Shown: in pieces, positions 3,553-57,945 of the stretch
Layout: every line of letters starts with the position of its first letter
Numbering within the stretch: position 1 is the stretch's first letter
IMG/VR virus record: IMGVR_UViG_3300022188_000009
Source: a virus
Lineage: Duplodnaviria > Heunggongvirae > Uroviricota > Caudoviricetes
DNA length: 64,000 bases
Strand: one strand, 5' to 3'
Notes under the pieces: generated by a model
Databases searched by the model: none
The model's input: only the letters and a program-made list of their open reading frames with translations
What the model was told of the DNA's origin: nothing
Made by a program: the position numbers and the translations under genes

Positions 3553-3736
3553 AAAAGAATTAAGAGATTTAATTAACACACATAGTATTGATACTGTGTG
3601 TAATATATCAGATACCTTGTTGGCAGAACTAATTGTCGGTGCTATTAAAGGTATAAAAAAAACTAAAAGAAAGTGTTTTGGTTGCCATGAATGTGATCCA
3701 AAACAGCCCACGTGTACACATATTGAAAGGAGTTAA
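3539..3736 (+). CDS. Small protein with a C-terminal Cys cluster
   Basis: RBS aaggag. Motif CFGCHECDPKQPTC. Confidence 0.4.
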   Translation: MKEFKKELRDLINTHSIDTVCNISDTLLAELIVGAIKGIKKTKRKCFGCHECDPKQPTCTHIERS

Positions 3737-3737
3737 A

Positions 3738-4727
3738 ATGAAAATTCTACAGCATCTAAAAGTACCAACCGGTGATATACTGGTGGTAGAAGGTAAAAAA
3801 GGTAAATTGGAAATGTTATCTATAGGCGACTATGGACAGGGTCATAACCTAAAATGCGATGCTCTAGGAATATCAAGAGTGTTAGACAAAGTAGAACATA
3901 CTGATATACTGCCTTTAGAAGAAAAGTGGGTAATCACCATATCTACCCAATACGGCTGTTCAATGGGGTGTAAGTTTTGTGATGTTCCTAAAGTAGGGTC
4001 TGGTAAAAATGCTACCTATAAAGACCTTATAAAGCAAATATTGCAAGGCATCTATTTACACCCAGAAGTTAAATCAACAAAAAGACTCAATATTCATTAC
4101 GCTCGTATGGGTGAGCCTACGTGGAATCCTAATGTGTTGGATGCTACGAAATGGGCTAAGGAACATCTTGATCATGAATATAAGATTCATCCGGTGGTGT
4201 CTACTATGATGCCAAGAAAGAATGAATGGCTAAGAACCTTTATACACACTTGGATGAGAATAAAGAATCGGCTACTTGAAGGGAATGCAGGATTACAGTT
4301 AAGCATTAACTCGACCAATGACAAAGAAAGAGAAGTAATGTTTAATAATAATGCCTGCTCCTTTCCTGAGATAGCCAATATTATGAGAGGTGTTATTCCA
4401 AATGGAAGAAAGATTACTCTTAATTTTCCTATAGCCGGCTATGAGATAGATCCAAGCGTTTTACTGAACTTTTTTGATCCGGATGATTATATCATTAAAT
4501 TAACGCCCATGCATAAAACGTCGGCTGCTCTCAAAAATGATATTAAAACAGAAGGAGATTATACAGAGTATCATCCATATGAACAGCATGAAACAGAGTT
4601 AAAGGCTGCTGGATATGATGTTTTGGTCTTTATAGCATCAAAAGAAGAAGACTTGGGATTGATAACTTGTGGGAATGTTATCTTATCCGGGGCATTACCA
4701 AAAGTTGATTATAAACGAGTATTATAA
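3738..4727 (+). CDS. Radical SAM enzyme of the RlmN/Cfr family
   Basis: The segment VITISTQYGCSMGCKFC matches RlmN ATLCVSSQVGCALECKFC and includes the CxxxCxxC cluster. ARMGEPTWN aligns with RlmN MGMGEPLLN. LSINSTNDKERE aligns with RlmN ISLHAPNDEIRD. The C-terminal ITCGN aligns with RlmN AACGQ. The start is placed at the MKILQ Met, which has the RBS aaaggag. The residue equivalent to RlmN Cys118 is Thr. Confidence 0.7.
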   Translation: MKILQHLKVPTGDILVVEGKKGKLEMLSIGDYGQGHNLKCDALGISRVLDKVEHTDILPLEEKWVITISTQYGCSMGCKFCDVPKVGSGKNATYKDLIKQILQGIYLHPEVKSTKRLNIHYARMGEPTWNPNVLDATKWAKEHLDHEYKIHPVVSTMMPRKNEWLRTFIHTWMRIKNRLLEGNAGLQLSINSTNDKEREVMFNNNACSFPEIANIMRGVIPNGRKITLNFPIAGYEIDPSVLLNFFDPDDYIIKLTPMHKTSAALKNDIKTEGDYTEYHPYEQHETELKAAGYDVLVFIASKEEDLGLITCGNVILSGALPKVDYKRVL

Positions 4728-5636: not shown

Positions 5637-6095
5637 ATGTTGACTATTGCAGCCGATAAACGTATATCTTGTTTTGAGAGTAATACTGTTGATGCTGCCT
5701 GGTTATGTCCTGAGTACATTAAAGAAATTATGCCTGTAGTTAAAGCTCCTACGGAAAAGAAAGTATTTTATGTTTACTTTGATTTTAACAAGTCTAATAT
5801 TAAAGACGAACAGGTGCCTATACTGAAAGCTGCTATTGACTATGCTAAGCTTGGTGGTACTGTAGATATCAAACTGGAAACAAGTTGTGATTTTCGTGGT
5901 TCTGTTGCATATAACTTTAAGCTTGGAGAAGACCGTGCTGATGCTGTAGCATTATGGTTTGCTGATAACGGATTAGATTTACCTATCTCTATTGATAATT
6001 ATGGTGAAGAGCGGTCTATGATTCGTTCTTTAGTAAATGGTATCTTTTGTCCTGATTGTTGGGCTGATCGTAAAGTAAAGGTTACTGTTGAATAG
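5637..6095 (+). CDS. Hypothetical protein
   Basis: 152-codon ORF, followed by a strong terminator. Confidence 0.45.
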   Translation: MLTIAADKRISCFESNTVDAAWLCPEYIKEIMPVVKAPTEKKVFYVYFDFNKSNIKDEQVPILKAAIDYAKLGGTVDIKLETSCDFRGSVAYNFKLGEDRADAVALWFADNGLDLPISIDNYGEERSMIRSLVNGIFCPDCWADRKVKVTVE

Positions 6096-6103
6096 TTAAT
6101 GGG

Positions 6104-6140
6104 CTTGGTGGGGGATTTTTCCCCCGCCGGCTAAAATTTT
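6104..6140 (+). terminator. Rho-independent terminator
   Basis: Stem ggtggggg, loop attttt, stem cccccgcc, followed by a taaaatttt tail. Confidence 0.65.
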
Positions 6141-6500
6141 ATGAAAGGAAATAAAATGATATATACAGCCCAGTATAGATACCCTGGAAAAGATAGATTT
6201 GATATTACAGTTAAAGGTAATTATGAAGTTGGTAAACTTTATGCACCAACATGGTCTATGGTAAGTGGAATCAAAAAGGGTACACTGACTCATGAAGAGT
6301 ATACAGCCCAATATTATAATCTCCTAATTCAGCGTTGGGCTATATCAGGTGAAGAAATGATGAGTATTATTGATAAAGCACGTAATCAAGACGTCACATT
6401 AGTGTGCTTTTGCCCTGCTAATGCTTTTTGTCATCGCTATTTACTGGTAAAATTTCTGCAGCATAATTGGGGTGTTGAGTATGGAGGAGAAAGGAAATAA
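6141..6500 (+). CDS. DUF488-family protein
   Basis: MIYTAQY...VTLVCFCPANAFCHRYLL matches the DUF488 signature (N-terminal IYTiGy and a C-terminal LLCxC..CHR motif). The start may instead be the Met at 6156. Confidence 0.55.
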   Translation: MKGNKMIYTAQYRYPGKDRFDITVKGNYEVGKLYAPTWSMVSGIKKGTLTHEEYTAQYYNLLIQRWAISGEEMMSIIDKARNQDVTLVCFCPANAFCHRYLLVKFLQHNWGVEYGGERK

Positions 6501-6605
6501 ATGACTTCTGGAGAATGTTTATTGTTAGCTATAATAATAGTTACAGTTTGTTTATCTTACTGTTGTGGTATGACATGGCCTGCTAACTGGATAATGGGTT
6601 GGTAG
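6501..6605 (+). CDS. Possible 34-aa hydrophobic peptide
   Basis: Translation MTSGECLLLAIIIVTVCLSYCCGMTWPANWIMGW. It overlaps the upstream stop in a TAAATG arrangement. Speculative. Confidence 0.25.
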   Translation: MTSGECLLLAIIIVTVCLSYCCGMTWPANWIMGW

Positions 6606-6732
6606 AAACGTTAACTGTATGAAATCTTTAGATAGAATTAATTAAAATAACTGTCAAACATAGAGTTTGGAAATTCGAAATAACATAAAATGAAAGGAAA
6701 AATAACTAAAAGAGGTAAAAAAGAAAATAACA

Positions 6733-7251
6733 ATGAATAAAAATTTACAAAGTGCAAGGAAAAATAAAAATGATGAATTTATTAAGATAAAAGATCATCC
6801 AAGATATTCTATTTCAAAAAGTGGTATAGTATGCAACGATAAAACAGGAAAGGTTTTAAAAAATATAAAACTTAAAACAGGATATTTACGGGTAACTTTA
6901 TCTAGTAGAAAACAAGTTTTAGTACATAGATTGGTTGCAGAAGCTTTTATTCCTAATCCATATAATTTACCTTGTGTTAATCATATAGATGAAAATCCTG
7001 AAAATAATAATAACTATGGTAACTTAGAATGGGTTACTCACAAACAAAATATAAGACATTCATGTAAAGGTTGCAAAAGTTATTTGTTTAATAAGAAAGA
7101 ATATTATGAAACAAACAGTTGTACCAGATCGGATTTCAAAAGAATATGTAATAGGCATGTATGGAATATAGTAGATTTTACAGAATTAGATAGTGGAGAA
7201 AAACGGTATTCAAATAAAAAATATTATTATATTGAAAGAGGCCCCCAATGA
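6733..7251 (+). CDS. HNH homing endonuclease
   Basis: The motif VNHIDENPENNNNYGNLEWVTHKQN is the classic H-N-H core of phage homing endonucleases. Confidence 0.7.
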   Translation: MNKNLQSARKNKNDEFIKIKDHPRYSISKSGIVCNDKTGKVLKNIKLKTGYLRVTLSSRKQVLVHRLVAEAFIPNPYNLPCVNHIDENPENNNNYGNLEWVTHKQNIRHSCKGCKSYLFNKKEYYETNSCTRSDFKRICNRHVWNIVDFTELDSGEKRYSNKKYYYIERGPQ

Positions 7252-8282
7252 ACAGTAACCTACAAAGAGCTAAAAAAGCAAAACAGGATGAATTCTACAC
7301 ACAGCTTACAGACATTGAAAAAGAATTAAAACATTACCGAGAGTATTTTAAAGGAAAAAACGTATTTTGTAATTGTGATGACCCAAGTATTAGTGGATTT
7401 TTTCACTATTTTTCATATAATTTTGAATATTTAGGTCTAAAAAAACTAATTACTACCTGTTACAAGAATCAACAGATGAATTTATTCAGTAAACGTGATA
7501 TAGAAAAAGCGATTTATCTTGAGTATGAAGGTACTAAAAATGACGGTAATGTACCAGCTCTTGAAGACATCGGTATTAAACCGTTAAAAGGTAATGGAGA
7601 TTTTCGTTCTGAAGAATGTATAGAGATTCTTAAAGGAGCTGATGTTGTTGTTACTAATCCACCATTTTCATTATTTAGAGAGTATTTGGCCCAATTAATT
7701 AAGTATGAAAAGAAATTTCTGATTGTTGGCCACATGAATGCTTTAACCTACAAAGAGATTTTTCCTTTAATAAAAAACAATAAAATTTGGTTAGGCACCA
7801 ATAATAATCAAAGTTTTGTATTTGGATCACCTTATAAAAATACTCTTGAAAATAACAAAAAATTTTGCAAACAAAAAGGTTATAATGGGGATAAATACAT
7901 TAAAGTGCCAGGAATAAATTGGTATACAAATCTTCTACATAAAAAGAGAAACAAAAAACTTACATTATTTGAAAATTATTATGGGCATGAAGAAAACTAT
8001 CCAAAATATGATAATTACGATGCTATTGAAGTCAGTAGAGTAGTAAATATCCCTGGAGACTTTAATGGTGTAATGGGTGTACCAATAACTTTTTTAGACA
8101 AACATAATCCTGAACAGTTTGAGATTATATGGCAGGCTGCAGGAAATACACGGGCAACTGCTCCAAAAGAAATTTTAGATAGATTAAATTATCAGCAACA
8201 TATCGAAGATAGGGGTGGTTGTGCGATTATTAAAGGAAAAAGGACTTATGCAAGAATATTAATTAAAAGGAAAATAATGTAA
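7248..8282 (+). CDS. Putative N6-adenine DNA methyltransferase
   Basis: VVVTNPPFSL matches catalytic motif IV, (D/N)PP(Y/F). The start overlaps the stop of the upstream HNH gene. Confidence 0.5.
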   Translation: MNSNLQRAKKAKQDEFYTQLTDIEKELKHYREYFKGKNVFCNCDDPSISGFFHYFSYNFEYLGLKKLITTCYKNQQMNLFSKRDIEKAIYLEYEGTKNDGNVPALEDIGIKPLKGNGDFRSEECIEILKGADVVVTNPPFSLFREYLAQLIKYEKKFLIVGHMNALTYKEIFPLIKNNKIWLGTNNNQSFVFGSPYKNTLENNKKFCKQKGYNGDKYIKVPGINWYTNLLHKKRNKKLTLFENYYGHEENYPKYDNYDAIEVSRVVNIPGDFNGVMGVPITFLDKHNPEQFEIIWQAAGNTRATAPKEILDRLNYQQHIEDRGGCAIIKGKRTYARILIKRKIM

Positions 8283-9394
8283 TGAAAATAGAATTACGCG
8301 AAATACCAATTCAAGAAGTAGTACAATATAGTAAACATTTAAAGAAACGTCAAGGTTACAAAGATAATGCTGAAGAAGGTGTATATGGTATGAATGGTAG
8401 ATTAAATATTCGTCCTGCATATCAAAGAGAATTTATTTATAAAGATCTTCAAAGAAATGCAGTAATTAACACTGTCACACACGACTTCCCATTAAATGTT
8501 CTTTACTGGGCAGTAAATAAAGACGGAAGTTATGAGGTGTTAGATGGGCAACAACGCCTCATAAGCATAGGTCAATATGTAAACAGTGATTTTAGTTTAA
8601 ACCATAAATTTTTTCACAACTTAACCGACGATGAACGTAATCAAATATTAGATTATAAACTGATGGTTTATTTATGTGAAGGAAGAGATAATGAAAAATT
8701 AGATTGGTTTAAAATTATTAATATAGCAGGTGAAAAATTAACTGATCAAGAATTACGTAATGCTATTTATACTGGATCGTGGTTACATGATGCAAAAAGT
8801 TATTTCAGTAAAACAGGTTGTCCTGCATATAAAATAGCCTCGGATTACGTTAAAGGCTCGCCCATACGCCAGAACTACCTAGAAACTGTTTTGAAATGGG
8901 TAAGTGAAAATAATATTGAAGACTACATGTCAAAAAATCAGCATAACAAGGATGCCGTTGAGCTATGGAATTATTTTGAAAAAAGTATTTCATGGTTTAA
9001 AAATATATTTATTAAATACAGAAAAGAAATGAAAGGGTTACCAATCGGAAGTTTATACAATGATTTTAGTGACAATGAGTACCCTCTGCCCGATCAAATA
9101 GAAAAAACCGTCAGTGAATTAATGATAAACGATGAAGTGACTAAAAAATCAGGTATATACCCATACATACTTACTGATGATGAAAAATATTTAAACATTC
9201 GTTCATTTGATAATAATCAAAAACGTGAAGCATATGAAAAACAGGCCGGTATATGTGTACACTGTAAAAAACATTTTGAAATAAATGATACGGAAGCCGA
9301 TCATATAACTCCATGGTCTAAGGGAGGAAAAACTACTCCTGAAAATTGTCAAATATTATGCCTATACTGTAACCGTACAAAAAGTTCCAAATAA
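8282..9394 (+). CDS. DUF262 (ParB-like NTPase) plus C-terminal HNH nuclease, a GmrSD-like architecture
   Basis: The N-terminus carries the LDGQQRL motif that is the signature of DUF262. The C-terminus, CVHCKK...ADHITPWSKGG...NCQILCLYCNRTK, is a canonical HNH. Confidence 0.6.
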   Translation: MKIELREIPIQEVVQYSKHLKKRQGYKDNAEEGVYGMNGRLNIRPAYQREFIYKDLQRNAVINTVTHDFPLNVLYWAVNKDGSYEVLDGQQRLISIGQYVNSDFSLNHKFFHNLTDDERNQILDYKLMVYLCEGRDNEKLDWFKIINIAGEKLTDQELRNAIYTGSWLHDAKSYFSKTGCPAYKIASDYVKGSPIRQNYLETVLKWVSENNIEDYMSKNQHNKDAVELWNYFEKSISWFKNIFIKYRKEMKGLPIGSLYNDFSDNEYPLPDQIEKTVSELMINDEVTKKSGIYPYILTDDEKYLNIRSFDNNQKREAYEKQAGICVHCKKHFEINDTEADHITPWSKGGKTTPENCQILCLYCNRTKSSK

Positions 9395-9712
9395 AAATAT
9401 ATAATTAGGAGATTACAGTGGATAAATCTAAAACATACATAAAAATGTGTAATCATCCAAAAATTCAAGATAAATAGGTATTAGAATAAGGACAAATATA
9501 TTATGTAGACCCAATGATGGAAATATTTTCTTGGAGAGGGAAAGGAGAAGGAAATTCATCAGGTTGTTATCATATAATATCTATACTTTAATAGAAAAAT
9601 TTTATAAGTTCAATAAAGATATAAAAGACATATTAAATGAATATTCTATGGAACAACGTTGGCTTATGTTTGTTATGTATGAATTATATGGATTAAACTG
9701 GCAAAATAATAA

Positions 9713-17678: not shown

Positions 17679-19043
17679 ATGCATATCAAAGATCAGGAAA
17701 GAAATGGATTTAGAAGAACAGCATCTCCCTCAGAAACTATCAAAACAGTCAAAGACGGGTTACAACGTTTAGAATTGAAAGAAGAAATCAAAATAATGAA
17801 GTCTTCAGACCATTTATGGTCAGTACGTTTAGAAATACCCACTCTTCGTGCTGGTGTAAATGGTAAAGGTATAAGTGAACAACTTGCTATTGCTTCAGCT
17901 TATGGAGAAATGGCTGAACGTCTTTCTGCTGGTATGGAAATAGGTATTGAAGTTGGTCCATTTCGTCAGTTATTTGGAACAACAGGTGATGCTATGGCTA
18001 AAGTTACACTTTATAAATATATGAAAGGATACCGCTGGACTCATCAAGATAGTATACAAAATAGTGTAGCAGTTGAAGACTTTTGTAAACGTAACCCGTT
18101 TACTAATGAAGAATACCATAATATGAAAATGAATAGTGAGTTACTAAAACATTGGGTTCCTGGTTATTCTTTAGTACAAAAAAAGAATATTTATATACCG
18201 ATTCTTTTTACTAAATGGATATCATCTACCAACGGGTTAGCAGCAGGTAATACTATAGAAGAGGCTATAGTACAGGGTTGTTGCGAGATATTTGAACGTG
18301 ATGCCATGATAGACTTTTTACTAGGAAAAACTCCCCTTGAGAATTGTCCAGTAATTAATCTTACTACAATTGATAACCCCATTATTAAACAACATATTGA
18401 ATTTTTTCATAATAACCATGTTGAAGTTGTAATTCGTGATATAGGTAACAGTATTTATCCAGTATATACTATTCTAACATATAATCATGATATGCCTGAA
18501 AACTATATAGGCTATAATAATATTAAAGCCGGCAGTTCTTTTGATTCAAATGAAGCAATTATGCGTTGTTTTACAGAACGTATGCAGGGTACAGACTTTG
18601 AATTTGAAGAATCTCAAGGGCCTCGACCAGAAGGACTTAATCATGATCAATATATGTCTGCATTTTTCAAAGGAATATGTCCCATGGATCTTAAGACTCA
18701 CGGGGTAGGTACTTCAGTACCATATAAATCTTATTCAGAAACGAATATTGTGACTGAGATAAATAATTGTGTTGAAATTGCAAAGAAACTTGACACAGAT
18801 ATTATTGTAGTAGATCACACACATCCTATAATAAATTTTCCCACCGCCCGCGTAATTATGCCAGGAGTATCGGATTTTATGAAGTGGTGGGCACCTAGTA
18901 CACTAACCTCACAATTTGTTGGTAATCTTCAGCCTGAAGAAGATAAATATGAGAAAAAGTTAATTAGTGTCTTGGAATCTTTCTTTAAAAAGAAACCCCG
19001 TAAACAAGATCATGGTGGGGTTATAACATGTACAGAGGACTGA
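17679..19043 (+). CDS. YcaO-domain protein
   Basis: The segment GVNGKGISEQLAIASAYGEMAERL matches the YcaO signature, which is a GKG ATP-binding motif followed by a Ser/Ala-x-x-E-x-x-ER motif. Confidence 0.7.
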   Translation: MHIKDQERNGFRRTASPSETIKTVKDGLQRLELKEEIKIMKSSDHLWSVRLEIPTLRAGVNGKGISEQLAIASAYGEMAERLSAGMEIGIEVGPFRQLFGTTGDAMAKVTLYKYMKGYRWTHQDSIQNSVAVEDFCKRNPFTNEEYHNMKMNSELLKHWVPGYSLVQKKNIYIPILFTKWISSTNGLAAGNTIEEAIVQGCCEIFERDAMIDFLLGKTPLENCPVINLTTIDNPIIKQHIEFFHNNHVEVVIRDIGNSIYPVYTILTYNHDMPENYIGYNNIKAGSSFDSNEAIMRCFTERMQGTDFEFEESQGPRPEGLNHDQYMSAFFKGICPMDLKTHGVGTSVPYKSYSETNIVTEINNCVEIAKKLDTDIIVVDHTHPIINFPTARVIMPGVSDFMKWWAPSTLTSQFVGNLQPEEDKYEKKLISVLESFFKKKPRKQDHGGVITCTED

Positions 19044-42350: not shown

Positions 42351-45300
42351 ATGCAGGATACATTCAATTCGAGCAGAGTTCAACACCTAGTTAATACTAT
42401 TTTTACTCAATTTCGCTCAAGAACAGAAACTGAAGGACGGAAGAGCGGTGTAGATTTTGGAATCACACTTGATTTAAATATTGATTCAGATAATATACTT
42501 TGGCTTAAGTTTGCTAAAGGCAATGAATCACACAGTATCACTATACCAATGCCGTTTATAGAAAACAGTATAGAGTTTGTTCAGCAGAATGAAGTTTTAA
42601 GAGCTACTTGCCCATTCTGGTTGGAAGAAGAACAACGTGAGTTGGACTATTTTGGTGCTGTTTCTCAGGTCATACTTGGAACTCCAAGTGGGCTGATATC
42701 TGACGATTTAATCAAAGCTACTCCATATCTACAACGGGTTATATACGGCTTCAAGAATGATAATGCTTCGATAATTATTTATAACTTTCAACAGGCAATT
42801 AACGAAATAGTTCATAAAATGCCTCTACATGAAACAATGATGAATAGTTTCGTAATGAATAACAGACTGATGGTTGTTGACAAAGACTTTGATGAACTTA
42901 CAAGTCCTACACAACGCCTTGAGTATCAGGTAAACAAAGCTAAGAAATATTTCAATATTGGTTGGACATCGATAGGTCTGTCAGACGGGGCACTGGCAGA
43001 TAAGAATTATATCCTTAAGAAAGACTTACGTAATCTATCACCATTCGGTATACGATATCATAATCCTCAACGTAATCTGTATTCCACACTTGGGATGAAA
43101 GGTGATGAGTATTCAATTATTAGTTCACAGACATCCAAAGAACTTGCAGACAAGAATATTACTCGTAAAGGGTGGAATTTATTCTCAGCTTTTGTTGATA
43201 TTCCTGATATCTTTGAAGATCAAATAATGGTTGACAACTCTCACCTTGACAAGTTTGTAACATATGAACGCAGATACCAAGTATTCGGTATACTTCATAT
43301 AAAAGAAAATCAGACAATTAAAACAAATGACATTTTGGGCACTTCACCTGATCAGGAAAATATAATCTTCGATACAGTATGTGACAGTGCTCGTGTTATT
43401 AAAATTGTCGAATCTTCAGTATCAGTTGGTGGAGCTTTAACTAAAGTGTATAATGTTATTGTTTCCTATTGTCGTAACTTTCGTGACGGTGTTAAAATTA
43501 CTAACATGCATGGTAATAAAGGAGTCATTCGGATGGCTGACTTAGGCTATGCCGTTGATCCAAGAACAGGTCAGAAAAGGAAAATTGACGTAATTATTGG
43601 GGCAAAAACTGTTGGCAAAAGACGTAACTATGGACAGATTCTTGAGGCACTCACTAACTGTATTCTGGAAGCAGACGCTTCTTCTAGTACTGTATATATA
43701 GATTCAGAAACAGTTGAAATTCCTAAAGTTAATCCTATAGTTATTGCTGATGATTGGTATCAACCAAATGAGCAGATTGAAGCTGGATTAGAGAAGCGTG
43801 GGTTCAGACGTGATGGTACGTGGGATTGTGATACTTATGCTGGTAAAGTTAAAGCTATATGTGGTAATATTTTCTGGGGAGTAATTAAAACTCCAGAAGA
43901 TCAAGTATGGAAACCCAATGCTACAACTAACCGTAATGGTAAAGGGGTCCGCACAGCAGGCTTAAAGCTGTCTCATATCGAGTTTATGTCAATAGAAACC
44001 CGTTTTGGTGCTAACAGTGCTCTTATGGATGAAATCATGTCATACTCACAAGGCTCAGCAAATTTGCATGATGTATTGAGTATGATGCGTGCTAAAATTG
44101 GTACAGTACCAACCGATAAACCAGTGCTTGATTTACAAAGTATTATACCAGTAAACCAACAGGGTAGTACTATTATACCTGGACAATTCATCGGAGGAAC
44201 TATTGTTGATGAATTCTTTCATCCTGATGGTTTTGTATTTCAACTGCCATTACCTTATATGACTCTTGTTGATAGTGATGGAGAAACATTTGAAGGCTCT
44301 CCTTTATCATTCGACCAGATGACTGTTGCTGAGAAAGCAAAATATAAAAAGCAATTCGTCACTGATAAACTATATATCCCTAATGGGACGCTTAGAAAAT
44401 GTTGGAGGCATGCTACAGGAAAATATGGTTTGAGTGAGATCGGTGTATTAGTTAATAATGTAACAGTTATGGCACGAAGACTTGTAGAAGACCCACAGAA
44501 TGCAATTCACCACAGATTATATTATAGTACGTTATATACATATTTTAATAAGCTGAGTAAAATACTTGGTACAAAACGTGGTGAAATATCAACATATGGT
44601 ATGGGTATCAGATATCCATTTTCTGTTAAAGCTATTGCATGCCTGTCTACAACGCTGCCTAAAAACACAGTAGAAATTCATCGTAGTATGGCAGAAGTAA
44701 TGAAAGTCAAAAATAATGATGTTGTTTTGGCTGAAAGATTTCCATGTTTAGGATTTATGTCCGTACGTCCTCAGAAAGTACGAATTACTGATGATCCTAT
44801 GTGTAAATACGTTATTAGAGTGAGTGGTAATAGTTTAGTAAGTCAGAATCTTGATTTTGATGGCGATGTTCTATTCTTAGCAGCATTTCATACGCCGGCA
44901 GCGAAAACAGAATTACTTCGTGAATGGACAAACCCTGATAAGACGTGTTACAAGTTCATTAAAGAACTCAATGAACGAAAAGGAGCTCCCCATATTAAGG
45001 AGTTCACGTTTAAAGACTTTGATATTAAACCATTTGCAGACATGACTAATGAGGAACATGCAATTATAGTGGAGAAGAACACTGGGGTAAAAGCTCAAAC
45101 TGGCTCAGTTATTGCGTTAACTTATAATATTATGCGTATGGTTGAAAATTCTGATTTAGCTAAAGACCATAAAACGAAAGTTTCTATAGAGATGTTCTTG
45201 GAAAAAGCAGCTCAATCTGTATTCGAACAGAAGCATGGAGGCAGATCTCTTTATGAAATAGTTACCGAAGGTGTGTGTACTTCTGATGTTGAAATGCTAG

Positions 45301-45776
45301 TTGAAGTTGGTTTCAAAAGAGGTGTTACTGAAAAATTATGTACTTTAATTAAAGAACGTGCATCCACTTTAGGTATTTTTGACCTGGTTAAGTTTCATCA
45401 GGACTCGAAAAAGTTTGGAGGTGGCAATATCATAAATAAGGTTATTCGTGAATACCATCATATATATTTTGCAAGTCGTGCTTGCCTTGAAGGTACTGCA
45501 CTGCTTGAGGCATTAGATTATGATGCTGTAGATATTCCAAGTAGAATGTTCAAACGTATAATTGCAGGAAAAAATGAGAAAATACATACAGAGCTGGATA
45601 AAGTATTGAATGAAGCACAAGCTAATCAAATTAATGATAACAAATTGAAGAAAGCTGTTACAGACATATGCGAGATCTTTGATATAGCTATGAGCTGTAA
45701 GTCTATGGGTATACTGCCTAAAACAGGCAGTAAACTACGTGCAGCTCCAAAAACCGTTATAGGTGGAGGTTTCTGA
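42351..45776 (+). CDS. Large (1141 aa) protein similar to the RNA polymerase beta-prime subunit, carrying a double-psi beta-barrel catalytic motif
   Basis: VSQNLDFDGDVLFLAAFH matches the universally conserved NADFDGD metal-binding motif of multisubunit RNAP beta-prime. It is also related to RdRP/YonO-like polymerases. RBS aaagggg. Confidence 0.5.
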   Translation: MQDTFNSSRVQHLVNTIFTQFRSRTETEGRKSGVDFGITLDLNIDSDNILWLKFAKGNESHSITIPMPFIENSIEFVQQNEVLRATCPFWLEEEQRELDYFGAVSQVILGTPSGLISDDLIKATPYLQRVIYGFKNDNASIIIYNFQQAINEIVHKMPLHETMMNSFVMNNRLMVVDKDFDELTSPTQRLEYQVNKAKKYFNIGWTSIGLSDGALADKNYILKKDLRNLSPFGIRYHNPQRNLYSTLGMKGDEYSIISSQTSKELADKNITRKGWNLFSAFVDIPDIFEDQIMVDNSHLDKFVTYERRYQVFGILHIKENQTIKTNDILGTSPDQENIIFDTVCDSARVIKIVESSVSVGGALTKVYNVIVSYCRNFRDGVKITNMHGNKGVIRMADLGYAVDPRTGQKRKIDVIIGAKTVGKRRNYGQILEALTNCILEADASSSTVYIDSETVEIPKVNPIVIADDWYQPNEQIEAGLEKRGFRRDGTWDCDTYAGKVKAICGNIFWGVIKTPEDQVWKPNATTNRNGKGVRTAGLKLSHIEFMSIETRFGANSALMDEIMSYSQGSANLHDVLSMMRAKIGTVPTDKPVLDLQSIIPVNQQGSTIIPGQFIGGTIVDEFFHPDGFVFQLPLPYMTLVDSDGETFEGSPLSFDQMTVAEKAKYKKQFVTDKLYIPNGTLRKCWRHATGKYGLSEIGVLVNNVTVMARRLVEDPQNAIHHRLYYSTLYTYFNKLSKILGTKRGEISTYGMGIRYPFSVKAIACLSTTLPKNTVEIHRSMAEVMKVKNNDVVLAERFPCLGFMSVRPQKVRITDDPMCKYVIRVSGNSLVSQNLDFDGDVLFLAAFHTPAAKTELLREWTNPDKTCYKFIKELNERKGAPHIKEFTFKDFDIKPFADMTNEEHAIIVEKNTGVKAQTGSVIALTYNIMRMVENSDLAKDHKTKVSIEMFLEKAAQSVFEQKHGGRSLYEIVTEGVCTSDVEMLVEVGFKRGVTEKLCTLIKERASTLGIFDLVKFHQDSKKFGGGNIINKVIREYHHIYFASRACLEGTALLEALDYDAVDIPSRMFKRIIAGKNEKIHTELDKVLNEAQANQINDNKLKKAVTDICEIFDIAMSCKSMGILPKTGSKLRAAPKTVIGGGF

Positions 45777-49097: not shown

Positions 49098-50261
49098 ATG
49101 GAACTGAGTATAAAAATTTCTGCTACTATGAATAAGGAATCAGATTGGAACGATTTTTATGAACATCGTATTATCCGATTGCCTGCAGATGCTAGATCAA
49201 AATATAATTTACAGATTGAAGATTTTCTCTATCTGAGGAATAAATTTGGTGGGTATATAACCCTACAGATAGCAGAGGCATTTAAAGAGGATGTTGAAAG
49301 AAATCATCTATGTGGTTACGTAACTGCCACGAATTATGATAAATTATTTATTAAATCCCAAGATACTAATGAAGTCCAACAAGTGAGGGATATAACCCTC
49401 GGCTGTGACCCAGAAGCTTTTTTAGTTGATACTACAACCGGTAACATTATCGCAGCTCATCGATTTATGAAAAAATACGGGGATGTTGGACACGATGGTA
49501 TGTTACTTGAATTCAGACCATTACCATCAACCAGTGAAAATGTAGTTACAGCAAATATTGCAAATTTAATAATGAAAGCAAGAAAAATACTTAATGAGAG
49601 CACTGAGGGGCTTAAATACACGATGGTTGGTGCTTCCTCATGTCACGGCCTAGCTGCAGGTTTTCATCTCCATTACGGGCTTCCTGCAGGCCTTCTTGGA
49701 CGTAGACCAGCTGTGTCTAATATCGCTAAATTAATGACCAAAGCATTTGATTATTATATAGGTATTCCATCTATTATACCTGAAGGAAATGAAGACACCA
49801 GTAGACGAACGATGCAATTTGTTGAATATGGGAAGCCTGGTGGATACCGTTTAGATAATCGTACCTTTGAATATAGATTGCCTGGTGGTATAAATTTGAG
49901 GCATCCTTGTTTAACAAGAGGGCTTATGGCTCTGGGGGCCGTTGTTGTGGAGGACTTAGTTAGTAGGATACATACAAGTACTGATTACTTCTCAAATTTG
50001 AAAGAGGTGGCCACGGATGAGGATTTAAAAACTATTTATCCGAGATTACCTGTTATTGAGACACTTTATTCGGTAATCTGTAATCCTGATATCGGTCCTG
50101 CGAAAGCACATTTTGATGTTATAAAGGAAGATATACGAAAAATGATCGGTTACAGTGAACGTGCAGCATCAGTTGAATCTTATTTTACGTGTTTGGATCA
50201 TGGTATCCAGTATGATTCTAATCTTGAAGCAAATTGGGGAGGTTTTAATGAGAAACAGTAA
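49098..50261 (+). CDS. Carboxylate-amine ligase (GCS2/GS-like amidoligase), copy 2
   Basis: Carries ITLGCDPEAFLVD, and HGLAAGFHLHYG as the HxH motif. RBS gggggg. Confidence 0.55.
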   Translation: MELSIKISATMNKESDWNDFYEHRIIRLPADARSKYNLQIEDFLYLRNKFGGYITLQIAEAFKEDVERNHLCGYVTATNYDKLFIKSQDTNEVQQVRDITLGCDPEAFLVDTTTGNIIAAHRFMKKYGDVGHDGMLLEFRPLPSTSENVVTANIANLIMKARKILNESTEGLKYTMVGASSCHGLAAGFHLHYGLPAGLLGRRPAVSNIAKLMTKAFDYYIGIPSIIPEGNEDTSRRTMQFVEYGKPGGYRLDNRTFEYRLPGGINLRHPCLTRGLMALGAVVVEDLVSRIHTSTDYFSNLKEVATDEDLKTIYPRLPVIETLYSVICNPDIGPAKAHFDVIKEDIRKMIGYSERAASVESYFTCLDHGIQYDSNLEANWGGFNEKQ

Positions 50262-51936
50262 AGACAAGTGGTCGTTTTATAATCTACCATCACGACCAGA
50301 CTTGAATGCTGGAGAAATTATGTATTGGAAGAATACTCTTAAGAAAATTCTAAAGATTGGCTTAGAGTTTGAATATAATCTCCCAGAAAAGAAAAACGGG
50401 TCCTGTAAAGGTGATAGTACTACATGCCCGTGTGTAAATTTAACGCCTGAAAATGACTGTTGGCAACAATGTATTAATACAGAAGCATGCAACTTAATTA
50501 AACCAAATTTAGAGCTGTGTGATAATGTTACAGGTACATGTGAACCAGAAGACTGTAATACATGTGCTCACTTTACTCCGCATTGTAACGGAATATTTTG
50601 CCCTAATTTTGTTAGTTATTGCTTTGCATGCTCTGATTTTCGTAATGATTGTAAAAACTGTAAGTATAAGTATGATCCAAATCGTAATCCAGAAAATATT
50701 CGAAAACATATGATTAATGAATTAAAACCTAACAATACTTACGGTCAGGTTAGCCCAACAGGCGTTCACAGTATAGTAACTGATGGTTCCTTACTTGGTA
50801 AACGTGGGGCAGAAATTATTACTGTTGGTCGACGTGTAGATTATTGGGAATTTTATCGAATGGCTGAAAACATCATCAGTCTATCAACTAAACGTGGTGC
50901 GTACTTAAATGAAAGATGTAGCATCCACATGCACGCCTTAGCCAGTTACTATGGCAAGGTAGTTCCTGGGCAGGAAAAACTCAGTGTTCCAACTCGTGTA
51001 AATGAAATGGAGCGTGATATGCCCGAAATTATTTTAGCAAATTTACACCAGTTAGTTAGGCGTTACCAAAATGCTATGACATGGATGGTAATGGGCCTGT
51101 CAGAACAACACAGAATGACAAGATGGGAAAAATTTAGAGTTAGTGTACTCCCAGTTAGTGCTGTTATGAATCATATGTGTGAAGTACAGCAAAAAGTTGC
51201 CTCTAACGCAGGGGGGAATAAGTATGGATGGATTAATTATAGTAATATTGAATTTTCACCAACTGGCGATGTTAGTAGATTCCATGTAGAGTTTAGAGCA
51301 GCAGACGGTCTTAATTCTCCAAGTGCTGTTGCAGCTATTGCTTGTATGTACTATGCTCTTGTTATTAAAGCAGTAGAGATAAGTCGTTACGGTGTTGTGG
51401 AAATTGGCGGAGATAACTGGACAAAACAAGCAGATACAGTAAAGAAAGTATTACTGAATAATATGAGTTCGTATAATGAAGGTGATCGTTTTGGAGATAC
51501 TTCCAAACTTCACAAATATTATAATATTCTTATTGGTGAGTCGCTTGATTTGGTACGACAGTTGAAATCTATATTGATTAAGATTGGGCCTGCTTTTGAA
51601 GTACTTGAAAAATTGGCAGAACGCCCCTGTGCTTTACGCCTTGTTGATGGCCAAACCTGGGAACGTATTGAAGACGACCTAAAAGTCATCGTTAATAAAG
51701 AAGGTATGTTTGAATTAACTGTTAGTGAGATTATTACACTTAACCAAGTATCTGAGTGTCGTGATATAGATGAATGGGTTGGAGTTATTGGTCAGATTTT
51801 GCGTAATGACCCTGAATTAAATATTGATCCGGATAATGTGGAAGTCGAAGATACTATAAAAAGTTTCGTAATTAAAAAACAAGAAGAGGGTGAGTTGGTG
51901 TGGTCAAAGAACATCGGAGCCCCTATACTTATTTAA
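50248..51936 (+). CDS. GS-like amidoligase (GxExE type) with an approximately 90-aa Cys-rich insertion (about 20 Cys)
   Basis: IGLEFEYNLP matches the GxExE N-terminal strand motif of GS/GCS2-like ligases. ERCSIHMHALAS is the HxH motif. Start at MRNSK, with the RBS ggggagg. Confidence 0.45.
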   Translation: MRNSKDKWSFYNLPSRPDLNAGEIMYWKNTLKKILKIGLEFEYNLPEKKNGSCKGDSTTCPCVNLTPENDCWQQCINTEACNLIKPNLELCDNVTGTCEPEDCNTCAHFTPHCNGIFCPNFVSYCFACSDFRNDCKNCKYKYDPNRNPENIRKHMINELKPNNTYGQVSPTGVHSIVTDGSLLGKRGAEIITVGRRVDYWEFYRMAENIISLSTKRGAYLNERCSIHMHALASYYGKVVPGQEKLSVPTRVNEMERDMPEIILANLHQLVRRYQNAMTWMVMGLSEQHRMTRWEKFRVSVLPVSAVMNHMCEVQQKVASNAGGNKYGWINYSNIEFSPTGDVSRFHVEFRAADGLNSPSAVAAIACMYYALVIKAVEISRYGVVEIGGDNWTKQADTVKKVLLNNMSSYNEGDRFGDTSKLHKYYNILIGESLDLVRQLKSILIKIGPAFEVLEKLAERPCALRLVDGQTWERIEDDLKVIVNKEGMFELTVSEIITLNQVSECRDIDEWVGVIGQILRNDPELNIDPDNVEVEDTIKSFVIKKQEEGELVWSKNIGAPILI

Positions 51937-51945
51937 GAGGTGCTT

Positions 51946-52767
51946 ATGTGTGCTATTTTTGGAGTAGGATTTCAACGAGGTTGTAAAATATGTAATAATG
52001 AGATGGTACGGGAGATTATCCGTAATTTATTTCTTGAAAATATGGTAAGGGGCCGGACAGCTTCTGGCCTCGCCTATGTTTCAGGTAAAGAAATTCAAGT
52101 AATTAAGAAGAATACTGCTGCTTGTGATTTTATTCAGTTACCTGACTATAAAAAATCAAATCTTACATATTTAAAAATGTCGAATTCTGAAGATTCTATA
52201 AATTCAGAACATCGACCTGTTTCGGTACTTGGACATTGCAGATTAAAAACGAAAGGGACAGAACTTAATAATGTCAACAATCACCCAATTATAAGAGATA
52301 ATATAGTTGGAGTGCATAACGGTATGATTAGTAATGATGACTACTTATTTGACCATTATTCAGATAAATTCAAGCGTAACGGAAAAGTCGATAGTGAGAT
52401 TATATTTGCATTAATTGAGCATTATTCTGGCAATAACGGGACAATAGTTGAAGCCATTCAGAAAGCAAATCAAGAGATCTACGGAGGATTTGCCTGTGCC
52501 ATGGTACATAGATTTCAACCATACATTGTGTGGTTATTTAGAAACAGCAATCCATGTTCTATTTTTCATTACAAAGATAGTGGCCTTGTAATCTGGTCAT
52601 CAATGCCACAGTTTATAAGGTCGGCAACAAAAGGATATACTTTAGGGGAACCAGAAGAAATTGAATTTCCTGCAGAGACTGGAATTGCAATTGATCTATA
52701 TCAGAATAAATTTTACAGGTTCAAATTAAAGGACCAAGGAAAAGAAACTAATGCAGGAGTTCACTAA
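51946..52767 (+). CDS. Class-II (Ntn) glutamine amidotransferase, copy 1
   Basis: N-terminal MCAIFG, whose Cys would be exposed after Met removal. Also RGRTASGLA, HCRLKTKG...NNHP and VDSEII. RBS agaggtg. Confidence 0.6.
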   Translation: MCAIFGVGFQRGCKICNNEMVREIIRNLFLENMVRGRTASGLAYVSGKEIQVIKKNTAACDFIQLPDYKKSNLTYLKMSNSEDSINSEHRPVSVLGHCRLKTKGTELNNVNNHPIIRDNIVGVHNGMISNDDYLFDHYSDKFKRNGKVDSEIIFALIEHYSGNNGTIVEAIQKANQEIYGGFACAMVHRFQPYIVWLFRNSNPCSIFHYKDSGLVIWSSMPQFIRSATKGYTLGEPEEIEFPAETGIAIDLYQNKFYRFKLKDQGKETNAGVH

Positions 52768-53734
52768 ATATTTAATGGGGGTTATGGAACAACCAAAGTT
52801 ACTTGAAGAAAAATCCCCATCACCAACTGTTTGTATAGGACAAATGCTTTATGAACCAGGTATGCCTATTCCACTAATGTCACCTGTTATAATTGATACT
52901 AACTATCAAGAAAAATCGAGTTACACCCTTCAAATTAGTGAGTCTAACAGAGTGTTTGTGAAAGTAAAAACATATTTTCCGCCTAATAGTAATTTTAACC
53001 CGATTAATACAATAGTAACAAATGTTAATAAAGTTAGTGTAACAGAGCCCAAACAATTACTTGACAACCATTGTGTTAAAGATATCGATATATTTAAAAA
53101 AGAAAATATAGGTAAGATTGCAGACTATGTTAAGGAACACGGGGTAATCACTTTTAGAATGGAAAACCCCAATACGGCTATAAATTTTATGAGCACCTGT
53201 TTAAAAAGTGTAAAAAGTGATTATAGATATTCCTGTTTCATAAAACGGTTTTGTGTGGGAAATAGACACCCTAGACTTTCATGTATTGATGATACTTTGA
53301 TCTTATTTGTTAGTTTTTTCGACTTGCCTTATGCAATTCCTGTATATAATAAGAAAAAAGCTGATGGTATGGGAGTACGCATCGGCATGTACTGGCCAAA
53401 ATCTACAAAAAAAATGGGTAAGTTGTGTGAGGTTGACTCATTGTACTTTGCAGTATCTATGCACCCTGATAACTTGTTGCACATTGATGGGCAAAAAATA
53501 AATAAACCTGGATTTATTTGTAATGATTATATAGATAATTTCTGTAATACATTGAATAACGAGATTAAACGACGTAAAGATTTACCAAGGCTTATTGAAG
53601 AGGCTAAACAAAATAAGAAAAAAGAAGAAGGAGAACCAAGTAAATTTACAGATGTGTATTTAAGTACAACAAATTTAGGTAGTTCAGCTACTTCTTATAC
53701 GTATACAACTAGTAGTAATACATCAACTTATTAA
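52751..53734 (+). CDS. Hypothetical protein with a Ser/Thr-rich C-terminus
   Basis: Lies between the two class-II GATase genes. Confidence 0.45.
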   Translation: MQEFTKYLMGVMEQPKLLEEKSPSPTVCIGQMLYEPGMPIPLMSPVIIDTNYQEKSSYTLQISESNRVFVKVKTYFPPNSNFNPINTIVTNVNKVSVTEPKQLLDNHCVKDIDIFKKENIGKIADYVKEHGVITFRMENPNTAINFMSTCLKSVKSDYRYSCFIKRFCVGNRHPRLSCIDDTLILFVSFFDLPYAIPVYNKKKADGMGVRIGMYWPKSTKKMGKLCEVDSLYFAVSMHPDNLLHIDGQKINKPGFICNDYIDNFCNTLNNEIKRRKDLPRLIEEAKQNKKKEEGEPSKFTDVYLSTTNLGSSATSYTYTTSSNTSTY

Positions 53735-53756
53735 AATAAAGGTTAGGAGGTAACCC

Positions 53757-55763: not shown

Positions 55764-55776
55764 GAGGATATAGTTT

Positions 55777-57069: not shown

Positions 57070-57090
57070 TAAAAGGATTAAATAAAACAA

Positions 57091-57891
57091 ATGAAAGAAA
57101 TTAAAATAGATTTTATTGATGAATATTCTCCAGCAAATCTTTACTCTACTAAAGATATATATTTTTCATGGTTAACTGCCCCCAAAAAAAATGTACTTTA
57201 TCAAATTACAAAGTGGCATAGTTGCCGAGAAACGTTTGTTGGAGAATTAAATAAACAGTTCGATGAAAAAAGAAAATGGCCCTATAAATATGAAATCAAC
57301 ACTACACATACAAGGTTTGCTGCTACACATAAATACATTAATAATATGCACATTAACCATTTTGAAAAAACGTGTGCTAACAACCTTAGATGTGCAAAAC
57401 ATGCTAAACGGCTTCTGAATTTATTCGAAAAATATCTTGGTTGGGGACTAACTACAATATATAAATGTAATAATGATAACTTTACCAAGCACAGAATTGA
57501 TATGTTTGTAGTATATGGTTCAGCAAAGTGGTTAAGATCCCCACAACTTATGTCATTATATTTATTAATCATTCGACTTTCAAAAAATGAGTATTTTCAA
57601 ACACTTAAAAATATCAATGATATAAAAAAATTCAGTAGTAATATTAAAAATAATGATTCTCAGGATATAATTTTTTGGAAAAGAATCAATCCATATCTTT
57701 TCAGAATATTAGATAATGTAAATGATTTATTTTTCCATCAATCTATAAAAAACTCACATACAGAGCAGTCAGGAACATCTGGTATAAATAATTTGGTAAA
57801 TGGATACAGTAATAAAGTAACAAACGGTGTATTTTGTAAAATTAAAAATGATATTGACAATAAGATGCCTGATTCTACGCTAAAAAGATAA
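57091..57891 (+). CDS. Member 5 of the paralogous family
   Basis: Carries YFSWLTAPKKNVLYQITKWHSCRETF and WLRSPQLMSLYLLIIRL. Confidence 0.55.
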   Translation: MKEIKIDFIDEYSPANLYSTKDIYFSWLTAPKKNVLYQITKWHSCRETFVGELNKQFDEKRKWPYKYEINTTHTRFAATHKYINNMHINHFEKTCANNLRCAKHAKRLLNLFEKYLGWGLTTIYKCNNDNFTKHRIDMFVVYGSAKWLRSPQLMSLYLLIIRLSKNEYFQTLKNINDIKKFSSNIKNNDSQDIIFWKRINPYLFRILDNVNDLFFHQSIKNSHTEQSGTSGINNLVNGYSNKVTNGVFCKIKNDIDNKMPDSTLKR

Positions 57892-57945
57892 TTGCACCAG
57901 AAAAAAGTATCTTATAGTTTTTAAGAAATAAGGAGAAATGTAAAA

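Follow-up and report, generated by a model that had tools for sequence, protein, structure and literature searches.

A phage-borne EcoRI-family methyltransferase and DUF262-HNH nuclease, a probable restriction-modification gene pair, with a homing endonuclease gene inserted in the methyltransferase gene

Organization of the locus

We will start with the three consecutive genes found in a stretch of 64,000 nucleotides of viral DNA (IMG/VR record IMGVR_UViG_3300022188_000009, Caudoviricetes), which we will call the window. All of them are on the + strand. ORF1 (6733–7251, 172 aa) codes for an HNH_3 (I-HmuI-type) homing endonuclease (HEase), ORF2 (7248–8282, 344 aa) for an N6-adenine DNA methyltransferase (MTase) of the EcoRI family and ORF3 (8282–9394, 370 aa) for a nuclease which joins a DUF262 (ParB-like) domain to an HNH domain, the predicted restriction subunit. 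An initial annotation of this DNA had already proposed a HNH homing endonuclease, a methylase with an NPPF motif and a DUF262-HNH protein: Pfam matches confirm the three assignments. It had also placed gene junctions at 7248–7251 and 8282, and both are read directly from the sequence. The first is an ATGA overlap, formed by the HEase stop codon TGA (7249–7251) and the MTase ATG (7248–7250). The second is a TAATG overlap, in which the MTase stop codon TAA (8280–8282) and the nuclease ATG (8282–8284) share one nucleotide, an A; by this overlap the MTase and nuclease genes are predicted to be translationally coupled.

The E-values of the domains, given below, and the over 8000 homologues of ORF3 present in databases place the three ORFs as real genes far beyond chance. 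NCBIfam has no family model for any of them beyond weak matches to the HNH of Cas9/IscB. A scan for promoters and terminators gave counts which are not above those of shuffled sequence. The carrier is most likely a large, jumbo-type, uncultured phage known from metagenomes; a megablast search with the region found no close relative among GenBank phages.

The homing endonuclease gene and its insertion point

ORF1 matches HNH_3 with E = 1.3e-6 and 28.4 bits, above the Pfam cut-off of 24.8, while its NUMOD4 match has 21.6 bits, slightly under the cut-off of 23.4. It also belongs to PHROG 59, 'HNH endonuclease' (E = 3.7e-33), and matches the HEase profile of PADLOC (E = 5.6e-18). The HNH core, VNHIDENPENNNNYGNLEWVTHKQN, is found in positions 6976–7050 of the + strand.

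The anatomy of this region is apparent when the window is compared by blastn with two relatives, L001 and L002. Both lack the HEase and the whole inserted cassette of 515 nt (6781–7295, + strand), and their flanks are 95–100% identical to the window. The cassette comprises the body of the HEase gene and a recoded substitute for the 5' end of the MTase gene. A single segment of L001, in positions 4384–4432, aligns twice in the window, at 6732–6780 and at 7247–7295. The first alignment corresponds to copy A (6733–6780, +), MNKNLQSARKNKNDEF, the ancestral MTase codons 1–16, from which the HEase now takes its start codon and N-terminal residues; it is identical to the MTase start of L001 in 46 out of 48 nt and collinear with the L001 upstream region. 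The second corresponds to copy B (7248–7295, +), MNSNLQRAKKAKQDEF, a recoded duplicate of the same 16 codons, which agrees with L001 in only 32/48 nt and with copy A in 33/48 nt. Copy B is preceded by a Shine-Dalgarno-like AGAGG and resembles the copy found 3' of a related homing endonuclease gene (HEG) in another locus, L174; it travels with the HEG. The insertion point lies after MTase codon 16, in frame, within a conserved ...DEF|YT... motif; the L001 allele reads ...AAAAACGATGAGTTT|TACACACAGCTTACAGAC... at this point. The initial annotation had not recognised this insertion of the HEase gene into the MTase gene.

Similar arrangements are found elsewhere. A HEase homologue with 69% identity (P0122) likewise starts with a leader of the MTase type. 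Another one with 61% identity (P0124), in L174 and L175, has a decayed MTase leader on one side and an intact EcoRI-family MTase on the other. The HEG-bearing allele of the window is found again in 7 contigs from several samples, and the HEase of the window is present in none of the 160 nuclease loci surveyed below.

There is thus a presence/absence polymorphism together with an exact insertion anatomy. ORF1 is most likely a separate selfish element, a homing endonuclease which invaded the MTase gene at a definable homing site. The suggestion that a homing element might be present at this locus had originally been made for the nuclease: it holds for ORF1, whose cassette is absent from L001 and L002, and not for ORF3, which is present with or without the HEG. 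By its insertion the HEG would have captured the promoter, ribosome binding site and start codon of the MTase gene. It brought along its own recoded version of the 16 codons which it displaced, and this keeps the MTase whole. With the partner nuclease there, the MTase has to remain intact. Recoding presumably also protects the invaded allele from being cleaved again; the cleavage site of the HEase is inferred. Since invaded and un-invaded alleles are both known, the homing site and a 'bring your own 5' end' repair are directly testable.

Free-standing HNH homing endonucleases of phages are represented by the I-HmuI / HNH_3-NUMOD family and by the mob and seg genes of T-even phages. ORF1 is similar to them in its HNH_3 core, its weak NUMOD4, its presence or absence among near-identical genomes and its highly conserved coding target. 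It differs from them in its location, neither in an intron nor in an intergenic gap: its reading frame continues directly from the 16 initial codons of the target gene. Other differences are the recoded duplicate carried by the cassette, which keeps the target whole, and the nature of the target, a restriction-modification (R-M) methylase. The locus can be described as a set of nested selfish elements: a homing endonuclease inside a presumed R-M module inside a phage.

The methyltransferase

Practically the whole of ORF2 (residues 4–342 of 344) is covered by the Pfam family EcoRI_methylase, PF13651 (E = 3.4e-133), and it also matches MTase_II of PADLOC (E = 5.3e-120). As a reference we used genuine M.EcoRI, the gene which adjoins R.EcoRI on an E. 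coli plasmid: identity over the whole length is 47.7% by tblastn and 52% in a MAFFT alignment. The catalytic NPPF (residues 137–140, 7656–7667, +) is invariant in the MTase alignments, including M.EcoRI, and a conserved CDDP is found at 7374–7385 (+). In a sequence search of solved structures ORF2 had no match. As in a Type II system, this MTase has complete catalytic motifs and a characterised relative.

The resemblance with the EcoRI system extends to the N-terminal leader ...KxKxDEFYTQ... and to the organization in two separate genes. However the partner is different: R.EcoRI, of about 277 aa and coded by an 834-nt gene, is a PD-(D/E)XK enzyme with no relationship to ORF3. The gene order also differs, MTase then nuclease in the window, nuclease then MTase in EcoRI, and the target of the window MTase need not be GAATTC itself.

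The DUF262-HNH nuclease

In Pfam, the N-terminal domain of ORF3 is GmrSD_N/DUF262 (residues 43–163, 8408–8770, E = 1.7e-14) and its C-terminal domain is HNH PF01844 (residues 325–369, 9254–9388, E = 7.3e-14); HNH_5 is also matched. The initial annotation had pointed to DUF262 and to DUF1524/HNH models; DUF262, the GmrS-like domain of ParB/Srx fold, and HNH are indeed present, and DUF1524 (PF07510), the GmrD-like nuclease domain with a (D/E/H)HxxP motif, gives no Pfam match at E ≤ 0.01. The motifs of DUF262 are YQRE (8420–8431), DGQQR (8543–8557, residues 88–92) and WFxxIN (8705–8722), those of HNH are CVHC (9254–9265), DH (9299–9304) and NCQILCLYCN (9344–9373), all on the + strand. Among 52 homologues the HNH residues D340, H341, N355 and N364 are invariant, as are C325, C328, C356 and C360, which we read as a Cys4 zinc site. 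Residues Q48, R49, D88–R92, W142, F143 and N147 of DUF262 are equally invariant, and ORF3 is predicted to retain an intact ParB-like NTP pocket.

The best profile over the full length of ORF3 is REase_II of PADLOC, PDLC03418 (E = 5.8e-125, profile positions 15–372 of 372), a label which may come from assays or from gene position alone. In a sequence search of solved structures only the HNH core was matched (E about 1e-3). In RefSeq all plasmid homologues are called 'DUF262 domain-containing protein', and we did not find in the literature a biochemical characterisation of the DUF262-HNH family. As a family named only as a DUF in RefSeq, with a conserved NTP pocket, it is a reasonable target for enzymology.

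Distribution of the gene pair

We have surveyed 160 loci with a homologue of the nuclease, 80 from GTDB genomes and 80 from IMG/VR, which cover archaea, many bacterial phyla and phages. In 151 of them (78/80 in GTDB, 73/80 in IMG/VR) the gene immediately upstream, in the same orientation, codes for an EcoRI-family MTase. The other nine comprise six loci with the MTase further upstream and inserted genes in between, two with too little upstream sequence and one without MTase. The MTase is thus adjacent in about 96% of the informative loci; the order MTase-nuclease is conserved and start/stop overlaps are frequent. The same pair occurs in Pacearchaeota and in jumbo-phage-like contigs, and in Flavobacterium phage laban6-1 (37% identity). 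Plasmids of cultured bacteria carry it as well, for example pDSM14862_g of Sulfitobacter indolifex DSM 14862; Macrococcoides canis (NZ_CP046364), Chryseobacterium taklimakanense (NZ_CP034172) and megaplasmids of Enterococcus faecium are further cultured carriers. The nuclease family as a whole is spread over hundreds of species, plasmids and large phages. Even between very distant phyla its identity is about 56–64%, a sign of horizontal mobility.

We also considered whether the genes inserted between MTase and nuclease in other loci are homing endonucleases. They are not: they correspond to extra MTase paralogues, two N-terminal lookalikes and unknowns. Judged by eye, one of these inserts has a TIR-like N-terminus and another one a Bro-N-like N-terminus.

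Restriction-modification and other interpretations

The MTase and endonuclease are separate, adjacent and co-inherited genes, as in Type II systems, and their conserved pairing points to a restriction enzyme which is blocked by modification. Domain content, pairing and homology with M.EcoRI are all observed features. We consider it likely that ORF2 and ORF3 form a mobile two-gene R-M module of Type II organization, with ORF1 as a separate HEG placed in the MTase gene. The MTase would place N6-methyladenine on a short target in phage DNA, probably GAATTC-like. The nuclease would cut DNA which lacks the methyl mark and would be blocked by methylation. Its C-terminal zinc HNH domain would carry out the chemistry, while the N-terminal ParB-like DUF262 domain with its NTP pocket would serve for DNA engagement or regulation, perhaps with a requirement for NTP. 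The pair could in this way degrade unmethylated DNA of the host or of competing phages and spare the methylated phage genome. The same module moves by horizontal transfer between archaea, bacteria, plasmids and phages. Among the roles listed in the initial annotation, the discrimination of self and non-self by means of the phage's own modification is close to this reading.

Complete MTase-nuclease pairs are known on other viral genomes: the chlorovirus R-M pairs, EcoP1I in phage P1, Sau42I in the S. aureus phage phi42 and EcoT38I in a P2-like prophage. The window shares this feature with them, and differs by its DUF262-HNH nuclease, by its uncultured large-phage carrier and by a HEG which parasitises the module. 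The newly seen detail is the HEG inserted in the MTase gene.

To our knowledge, classical Type II enzymes do not need NTP, and the NTP pocket of ORF3 puts the 'Mg2+ only' character of a Type II enzyme in doubt. The characterised DUF262 nucleases (GmrSD, BrxU, SspE) sense modified DNA (PMC12065111, PMC12707154). The strict conservation of the pocket and the existence of such modification-sensing relatives suggest that the mechanism may not be a simple 'cut if unmethylated'. Perhaps, although we only put it forward tentatively, DUF262-HNH nucleases paired with EcoRI-type MTases are a distinct class of NTP-using restriction nucleases in which the ParB-like domain, a sensor of modified DNA in Type IV enzymes (GmrSD, BrxU) and SspE, has been inverted in its use and checks for the absence of m6A; this domain might then be a NTP-gated clamp or switch which licenses the HNH domain. 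If this were true, Type IV and Type II restriction would be linked in evolution by a family common in DPANN archaea, CPR bacteria, plasmids and jumbo phages.

The depletion of palindromes gives no signal of the recognition site. In the window there are 20 GAATTC sites (17.8 expected) and 790 AATT (802 expected). In the 160 loci pooled together GAATTC has an observed/expected ratio of 0.73–0.76, the same as the general avoidance of palindromes found there. Neither in the window nor in the pooled loci does GAATTC or any other candidate site show a depletion which marks it as the target. Our search of the literature gave no named enzyme or recognition site for Type II enzymes with DUF262-HNH, for the seeds of PADLOC PDLC03418 or for the specificities of PF13651.

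An unlikely alternative is a sensing mechanism of the SspE/Dnd type: the m6A placed by the MTase would mark self, and the DUF262 NTPase would read the mark and use it to permit or modulate the attack of the HNH nuclease, or nickase, on foreign DNA. ORF3 would then not be a simple site-specific enzyme which methylation blocks. The pairing with a modification gene fits it as well as it fits classical R-M. The invariant motifs of the NTP pocket also agree with it, as does a match of ORF3 to NsnA (Menshen) of PADLOC with E = 8e-30. The DUF262 nucleases described in the literature sense modifications, and among them SspE needs phosphorothioate marks of the host (PMC9646914, PMC12065111). However the nearest full-length profile is the Type II REase and not SspE, GmrSD or Menshen. 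The module has two genes only, with no additional Ssp, Dnd or Menshen components, and its nuclease domain is not DUF1524 but an HNH of the canonical zinc type, as in McrA, Cas9 and the HNH enzymes of Type II. With respect to SspE and the Dnd DUF262 protein (PDB 9jfl), ORF3 has a different nuclease domain and the mark would be a methylated adenine, made by one Type II-like MTase, instead of a phosphorothioate, for which several genes are needed.

The two genes could also have independent roles, which we find quite improbable: the MTase would protect against EcoRI-like restriction by the host, and the nuclease would be non-specific or structure-specific, act in the breakdown of host DNA or in the processing of phage DNA, and be subject to a different control. 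Phages do commonly carry orphan methylases which counter restriction, phage HNH proteins are often involved in packaging or recombination, and the missing signal of a recognition site agrees with such roles. On the other hand cellular chromosomes and small plasmids, in which no role specific to phages applies, keep the pair just as well, and independent functions would not hold two genes together across archaea, many bacterial phyla and phages.

The initial annotation interpreted ORF3 as a GmrSD-type, modification-dependent Type IV enzyme. It would then be a weapon against phages with modified DNA, and the MTase would be functionally unrelated to it, for example an anti-restriction orphan. This interpretation does not stand up well and we consider it very improbable. 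ORF3 does share with GmrSD and BrxU (DUF262 + DUF1524) the general layout, an N-terminal ParB-like DUF262 with DGQQR and QR followed by a C-terminal His-Me finger nuclease, and BrxU is its top Foldseek match over the full length (E = 9.8e-4), its best structural neighbour. However DUF262 is all that it has in common with GmrSD: the nuclease domain is a PF01844 zinc HNH instead of DUF1524, and the protein has 370 aa as compared with about 560–600. The only Type IV profile of PADLOC which it matches covers just the HNH core, with E = 4e-4, very far from the value obtained with REase_II. Its constant association with an MTase implies the opposite logic, cutting of unmodified rather than modified DNA, and we know of no characterised Type IV enzyme which works with a cognate methylase. 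The DUF262 + HNH architecture by itself is no evidence of Type IV; it is the gene context which here reveals a methylase-partnered nuclease.

That ORF3 could be a free-standing homing endonuclease like ORF1, with the MTase gene as a mere landing site, is hardly credible: it has an HNH domain and lies in a hotspot of selfish DNA, as seen from the ORF1 insertion and the inserts of other loci, but it is found in HEG-less and HEG-bearing relatives alike, the family keeps 56–64% identity, its full length and its MTase partner across hundreds of genomes, and Pfam detects in it no NUMOD, IENR or other typical DNA-binding module of HEases.

A mosaic tract

In positions 7700–8860 (+ strand) the window has a mosaic tract, diverged from the HEG-less relative L001, which comprises the C-terminal half of the MTase and the DUF262 half of the nuclease. 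The MTase part has indels at 7790–7910 and 8150–8270. It is seen in the sliding identity over 60 nt against L001 and in protein alignments; the flanks of the tract are 97–100% identical. If the pair does represent an NTP-using class of restriction nucleases, as tentatively put forward above, the specificity of MTase and nuclease would be determined within this tract. We do not take the tract for a simple result of co-conversion with the HEG, since the two are separated by about 400 nt of near-identical sequence.

Domains of the three genes

Three genes follow each other on the + strand: an HNH homing endonuclease (ORF1, 6733–7251, 172 aa), an EcoRI-family methylase (ORF2, 7248–8282, 344 aa) and a DUF262-HNH nuclease (ORF3, 8282–9394, 370 aa). 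The sequence itself gives the junctions: an ATGA overlap between ORF1 and ORF2 (TGA at 7249–7251, methylase ATG at 7248–7250) and a TAATG overlap between ORF2 and ORF3 (TAA at 8280–8282, nuclease ATG at 8282–8284). The initial annotation had described the same positions and overlaps, and profile searches bear out all its domain calls. ORF1 matches HNH_3 (E=1.3e-6), NUMOD4 below threshold and PHROG 59 'HNH endonuclease' (E=3.7e-33). ORF2 has a full-length match to Pfam EcoRI_methylase (E=3.4e-133), with NPPF at residues 137–140. ORF3 contains GmrSD_N/DUF262 in residues 43–163 (E=1.7e-14), with DGQQR at 88–92, and HNH PF01844 in residues 325–369 (E=7.3e-14).

ORF3 had also been interpreted as a GmrSD-like, modification-dependent Type IV nuclease, and this part of the annotation is not supported. 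GmrSD enzymes are defined by DUF262 plus DUF1524 (PMC4437046, PMC12707154), and a profile search of ORF3 gave no match to DUF1524; the likeness to GmrSD is real but limited to the ParB-like (DUF262) domain. The nuclease domain is a canonical HNH, with D340, H341, N355 and N364 invariant in 52 homologues, as are C325, C328, C356 and C360, which we read as a putative zinc site. The AlphaFold model built from these homologues has a mean pLDDT of 88 and a pTM of 0.71. In PADLOC the whole protein matches PDLC03418, a profile of Type II restriction enzymes, at E=5.8e-125 (15–372 of 372 profile positions), a far better match than the only Type IV profile found (E=4e-4, in the HNH core); 'Type II' is here a catalogue label of PADLOC and REBASE. 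ORF2 matches PADLOC MTase_II (E=5.3e-120).

Pairing of methylase and nuclease

ORF3 has over 8000 relatives in databases. The best 120 of them share 61–91% identity with it; their sources include Asgard, Nano- and Pacearchaeota and CPR bacteria. We surveyed gene context at 80 GTDB loci, each from a different species, and at 80 IMG/VR loci, locating the methylase by tblastn. In 78/80 genome loci and 73/80 viral loci the nuclease directly follows an EcoRI-family methylase of the same orientation. In six others the methylase lies slightly farther upstream, with intervening genes; two have too little upstream sequence to judge and one has no methylase. Characterised Type IV enzymes are active without a cognate methylase, and having an obligate methylase partner marks a nuclease as one kept in check by methylation: gene context thus decides in favour of a methylase-partnered nuclease over a Type IV enzyme.

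The same pair, methylase first, is found on Pacearchaeota chromosomes, on phage-like contigs of 40–200 kb, in Flavobacterium phage laban6-1 (nuclease identity just 37%) and on plasmids of cultured bacteria, among them Sulfitobacter indolifex, Macrococcoides, Aeromonas, Variovorax, Gordonia and Enterococcus faecium. The plasmid homologues are still named 'DUF262 domain-containing protein' in RefSeq. Identity stays near 60% even between unrelated phyla, a sign of the horizontal spread typical of restriction-modification modules. A literature search found no paper characterising this DUF262-HNH family; the ORF2-ORF3 module is a new member, here phage-borne, of a catalogued, apparently uncharacterised family of methylase-partnered nucleases.

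Some viral loci depart from the simple pair. In L152 (519–3624), L168 (1386–3077), L165 and L166 a single DUF262-HNH nuclease is preceded by two or three EcoRI-family methylase paralogues in tandem, some of which are truncated. Several large viral contigs have a conserved gene of about 310–330 aa, of unassigned function, between methylase and nuclease (L165 3002–3994, L168 3081–4004, L169 3075–4004, L167 3225–3986); in L167 the product of the gene in this place has an N-terminus that looks TIR-like by eye. These intervening genes may be optional third components.

ORF2 is 47.7% identical (tblastn, 99% of length; 52% by MAFFT) to the methylase that an E. coli plasmid of 3986 bp carries beside its 'type-2 restriction enzyme EcoRI'. 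By these alignments it is a true relative of M.EcoRI, so the EcoRI methylase family pairs with two unrelated nucleases: R.EcoRI, in the order nuclease-methylase, whereas the DUF262-HNH enzymes follow their methylase. ORF2 may recognise a GAATTC-like sequence; palindrome statistics, for the window as for the pooled loci, gave no specific site signal.

Insertion of a homing endonuclease

Two metagenomic relatives, L001 and L002, share with the window the order OmpA-like, DUF488, methylase, nuclease, but ORF1 is absent; their nuclease is 91% identical and the flanks about 95%. The L001 methylase starts with ATGAATAAAAATTTACAAAGTGCAAGGAAAAATAAAAACGATGAGTTT followed by TACACACAG..., encoding MNKNLQSARKNKNDEF and YTQ. 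Its first 48 nt form the start of ORF1 in the window (46/48 identical), where they continue into endonuclease sequence (IKIKDHPRY...). At 7248 the window methylase begins anew, on a recoded copy of this stretch, MNSNLQRAKKAKQDEF, which shares 32/48 nt with L001; downstream of the copy, identity with L001 resumes. The insert is therefore 515 nt (6781–7295), in frame after codon 16. It falls within DEFYT, which is the family's best-conserved N-terminal motif and is invariant even in M.EcoRI. Lacking any other start codon, the endonuclease relies on that of the methylase and on the methylase's upstream signals; for the displaced methylase, the cassette supplies AGAGG, which resembles a Shine-Dalgarno sequence. 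Judged from sequence, a homing-endonuclease gene, ORF1, has invaded the methylase gene; the insertion is precisely resolved, with the methylase start codon captured and the displaced codons duplicated in recoded form. An intact methylase is presumably essential because the partner nuclease is present, and the recoding of 16 codons would shield the invaded allele from re-cleavage.

The endonuclease's closest relatives, tied to methylase leaders, give independent support. P0122 (69% identical) starts with a methylase-type leader, MTKANSNLHKAKKVKNDEFY, followed by EIKDEPNY. P0124 (61% identical; loci L174 and L175) has a decayed leader (MANQNLHKAKTAKNDEL-stop) on one side and, on the other, an EcoRI-family methylase that is intact and begins with MGNSNLHKAKKAKSDEFYTQ; this beginning resembles the recoded window copy at the DNA level. 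Among all fetched loci, duplicated leaders are found only in these endonuclease-bearing loci and in those with tandem methylases. The invaded allele is present on seven contigs from several samples. In L173 (86–1179) an endonuclease 69% identical to ORF1 retains the methylase-derived leader and precedes an unrelated 181-aa gene; it appears that the endonuclease moved with its captured leader, or that the methylase was lost.

The window and L001 are 97–100% identical at 7308–7700 and 8866–9525. In between (about 7700–8860) identity is 27–95% per 60-nt window, mostly 65–90%. This tract covers the C-terminal half of the methylase, with two indel hotspots (344-aa and 308-aa forms), and the DUF262 half of the nuclease. 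A simple co-conversion tract of the homing endonuclease is discarded, as the mosaic is not contiguous with it. Joint allele exchange of the DNA-reading parts of both enzymes is a speculation.

Possible mechanism

Most likely, the methylase would place m6A on the phage genome and the DUF262-HNH enzyme would cut DNA without this mark. In a lytic phage it might serve for host DNA degradation or exclusion of unmethylated competitors. A textbook Type II enzyme does not fit the invariant ParB-like NTP-pocket motifs of ORF3 (Q48, R49, D88-G-Q-Q-R92, W142, F143, N147), and the DUF262 nucleases that have been characterised sense modified DNA and are stimulated by NTP (PMC12707154, PMC12065111). For both reasons we retain, as a sizeable alternative, an SspE-like scheme in which sensing of m6A regulates the nuclease. 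Possible NTP dependence is the most interesting point, and interest would rise if the nuclease proved NTP-dependent or m6A-sensing.

Other features of the phage genome

Almost all genes in the window are on one strand. They include an RNA ligase, a helicase, a tRNA nucleotidyltransferase, a RuvB-like ATPase and a 1141-aa protein (42351–45776) with matches to Rpb2 domain 6 and Rpb1 domain 2. This protein is a piece of multisubunit RNA polymerase in which beta- and beta'-like parts are fused, a kind known from jumbo phages. The window looks like part of a large phage.

Immediately 5' of the module there are OmpA-like and DUF488-N3a genes (5637–6605; L001 3041–4257) and a hydrophobic 34-codon ORF (6502–6606), all conserved in relatives. 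A radical-SAM gene (3678–4727, PHROG 24834, E=1e-111) is an indel among relatives: about 1 kb (window 3707–4724) is missing from L001 and L002, with flanks aligning at 87–96%. GCGC is absent from the 64 kb, where a Markov model predicts 19.2 occurrences, and CTAG is depleted (74 vs 118); this suggests a host restriction system of the HhaI type, specific for GCGC, as a strong selective force. A YcaO cyclodehydratase (17679–19043) and a cluster at 49098–59049 with two phiEco32-type COOH-NH2 ligases, a glutamine amidotransferase and an ATP-grasp-like protein look like a peptide- or base-modification pathway of the phage.
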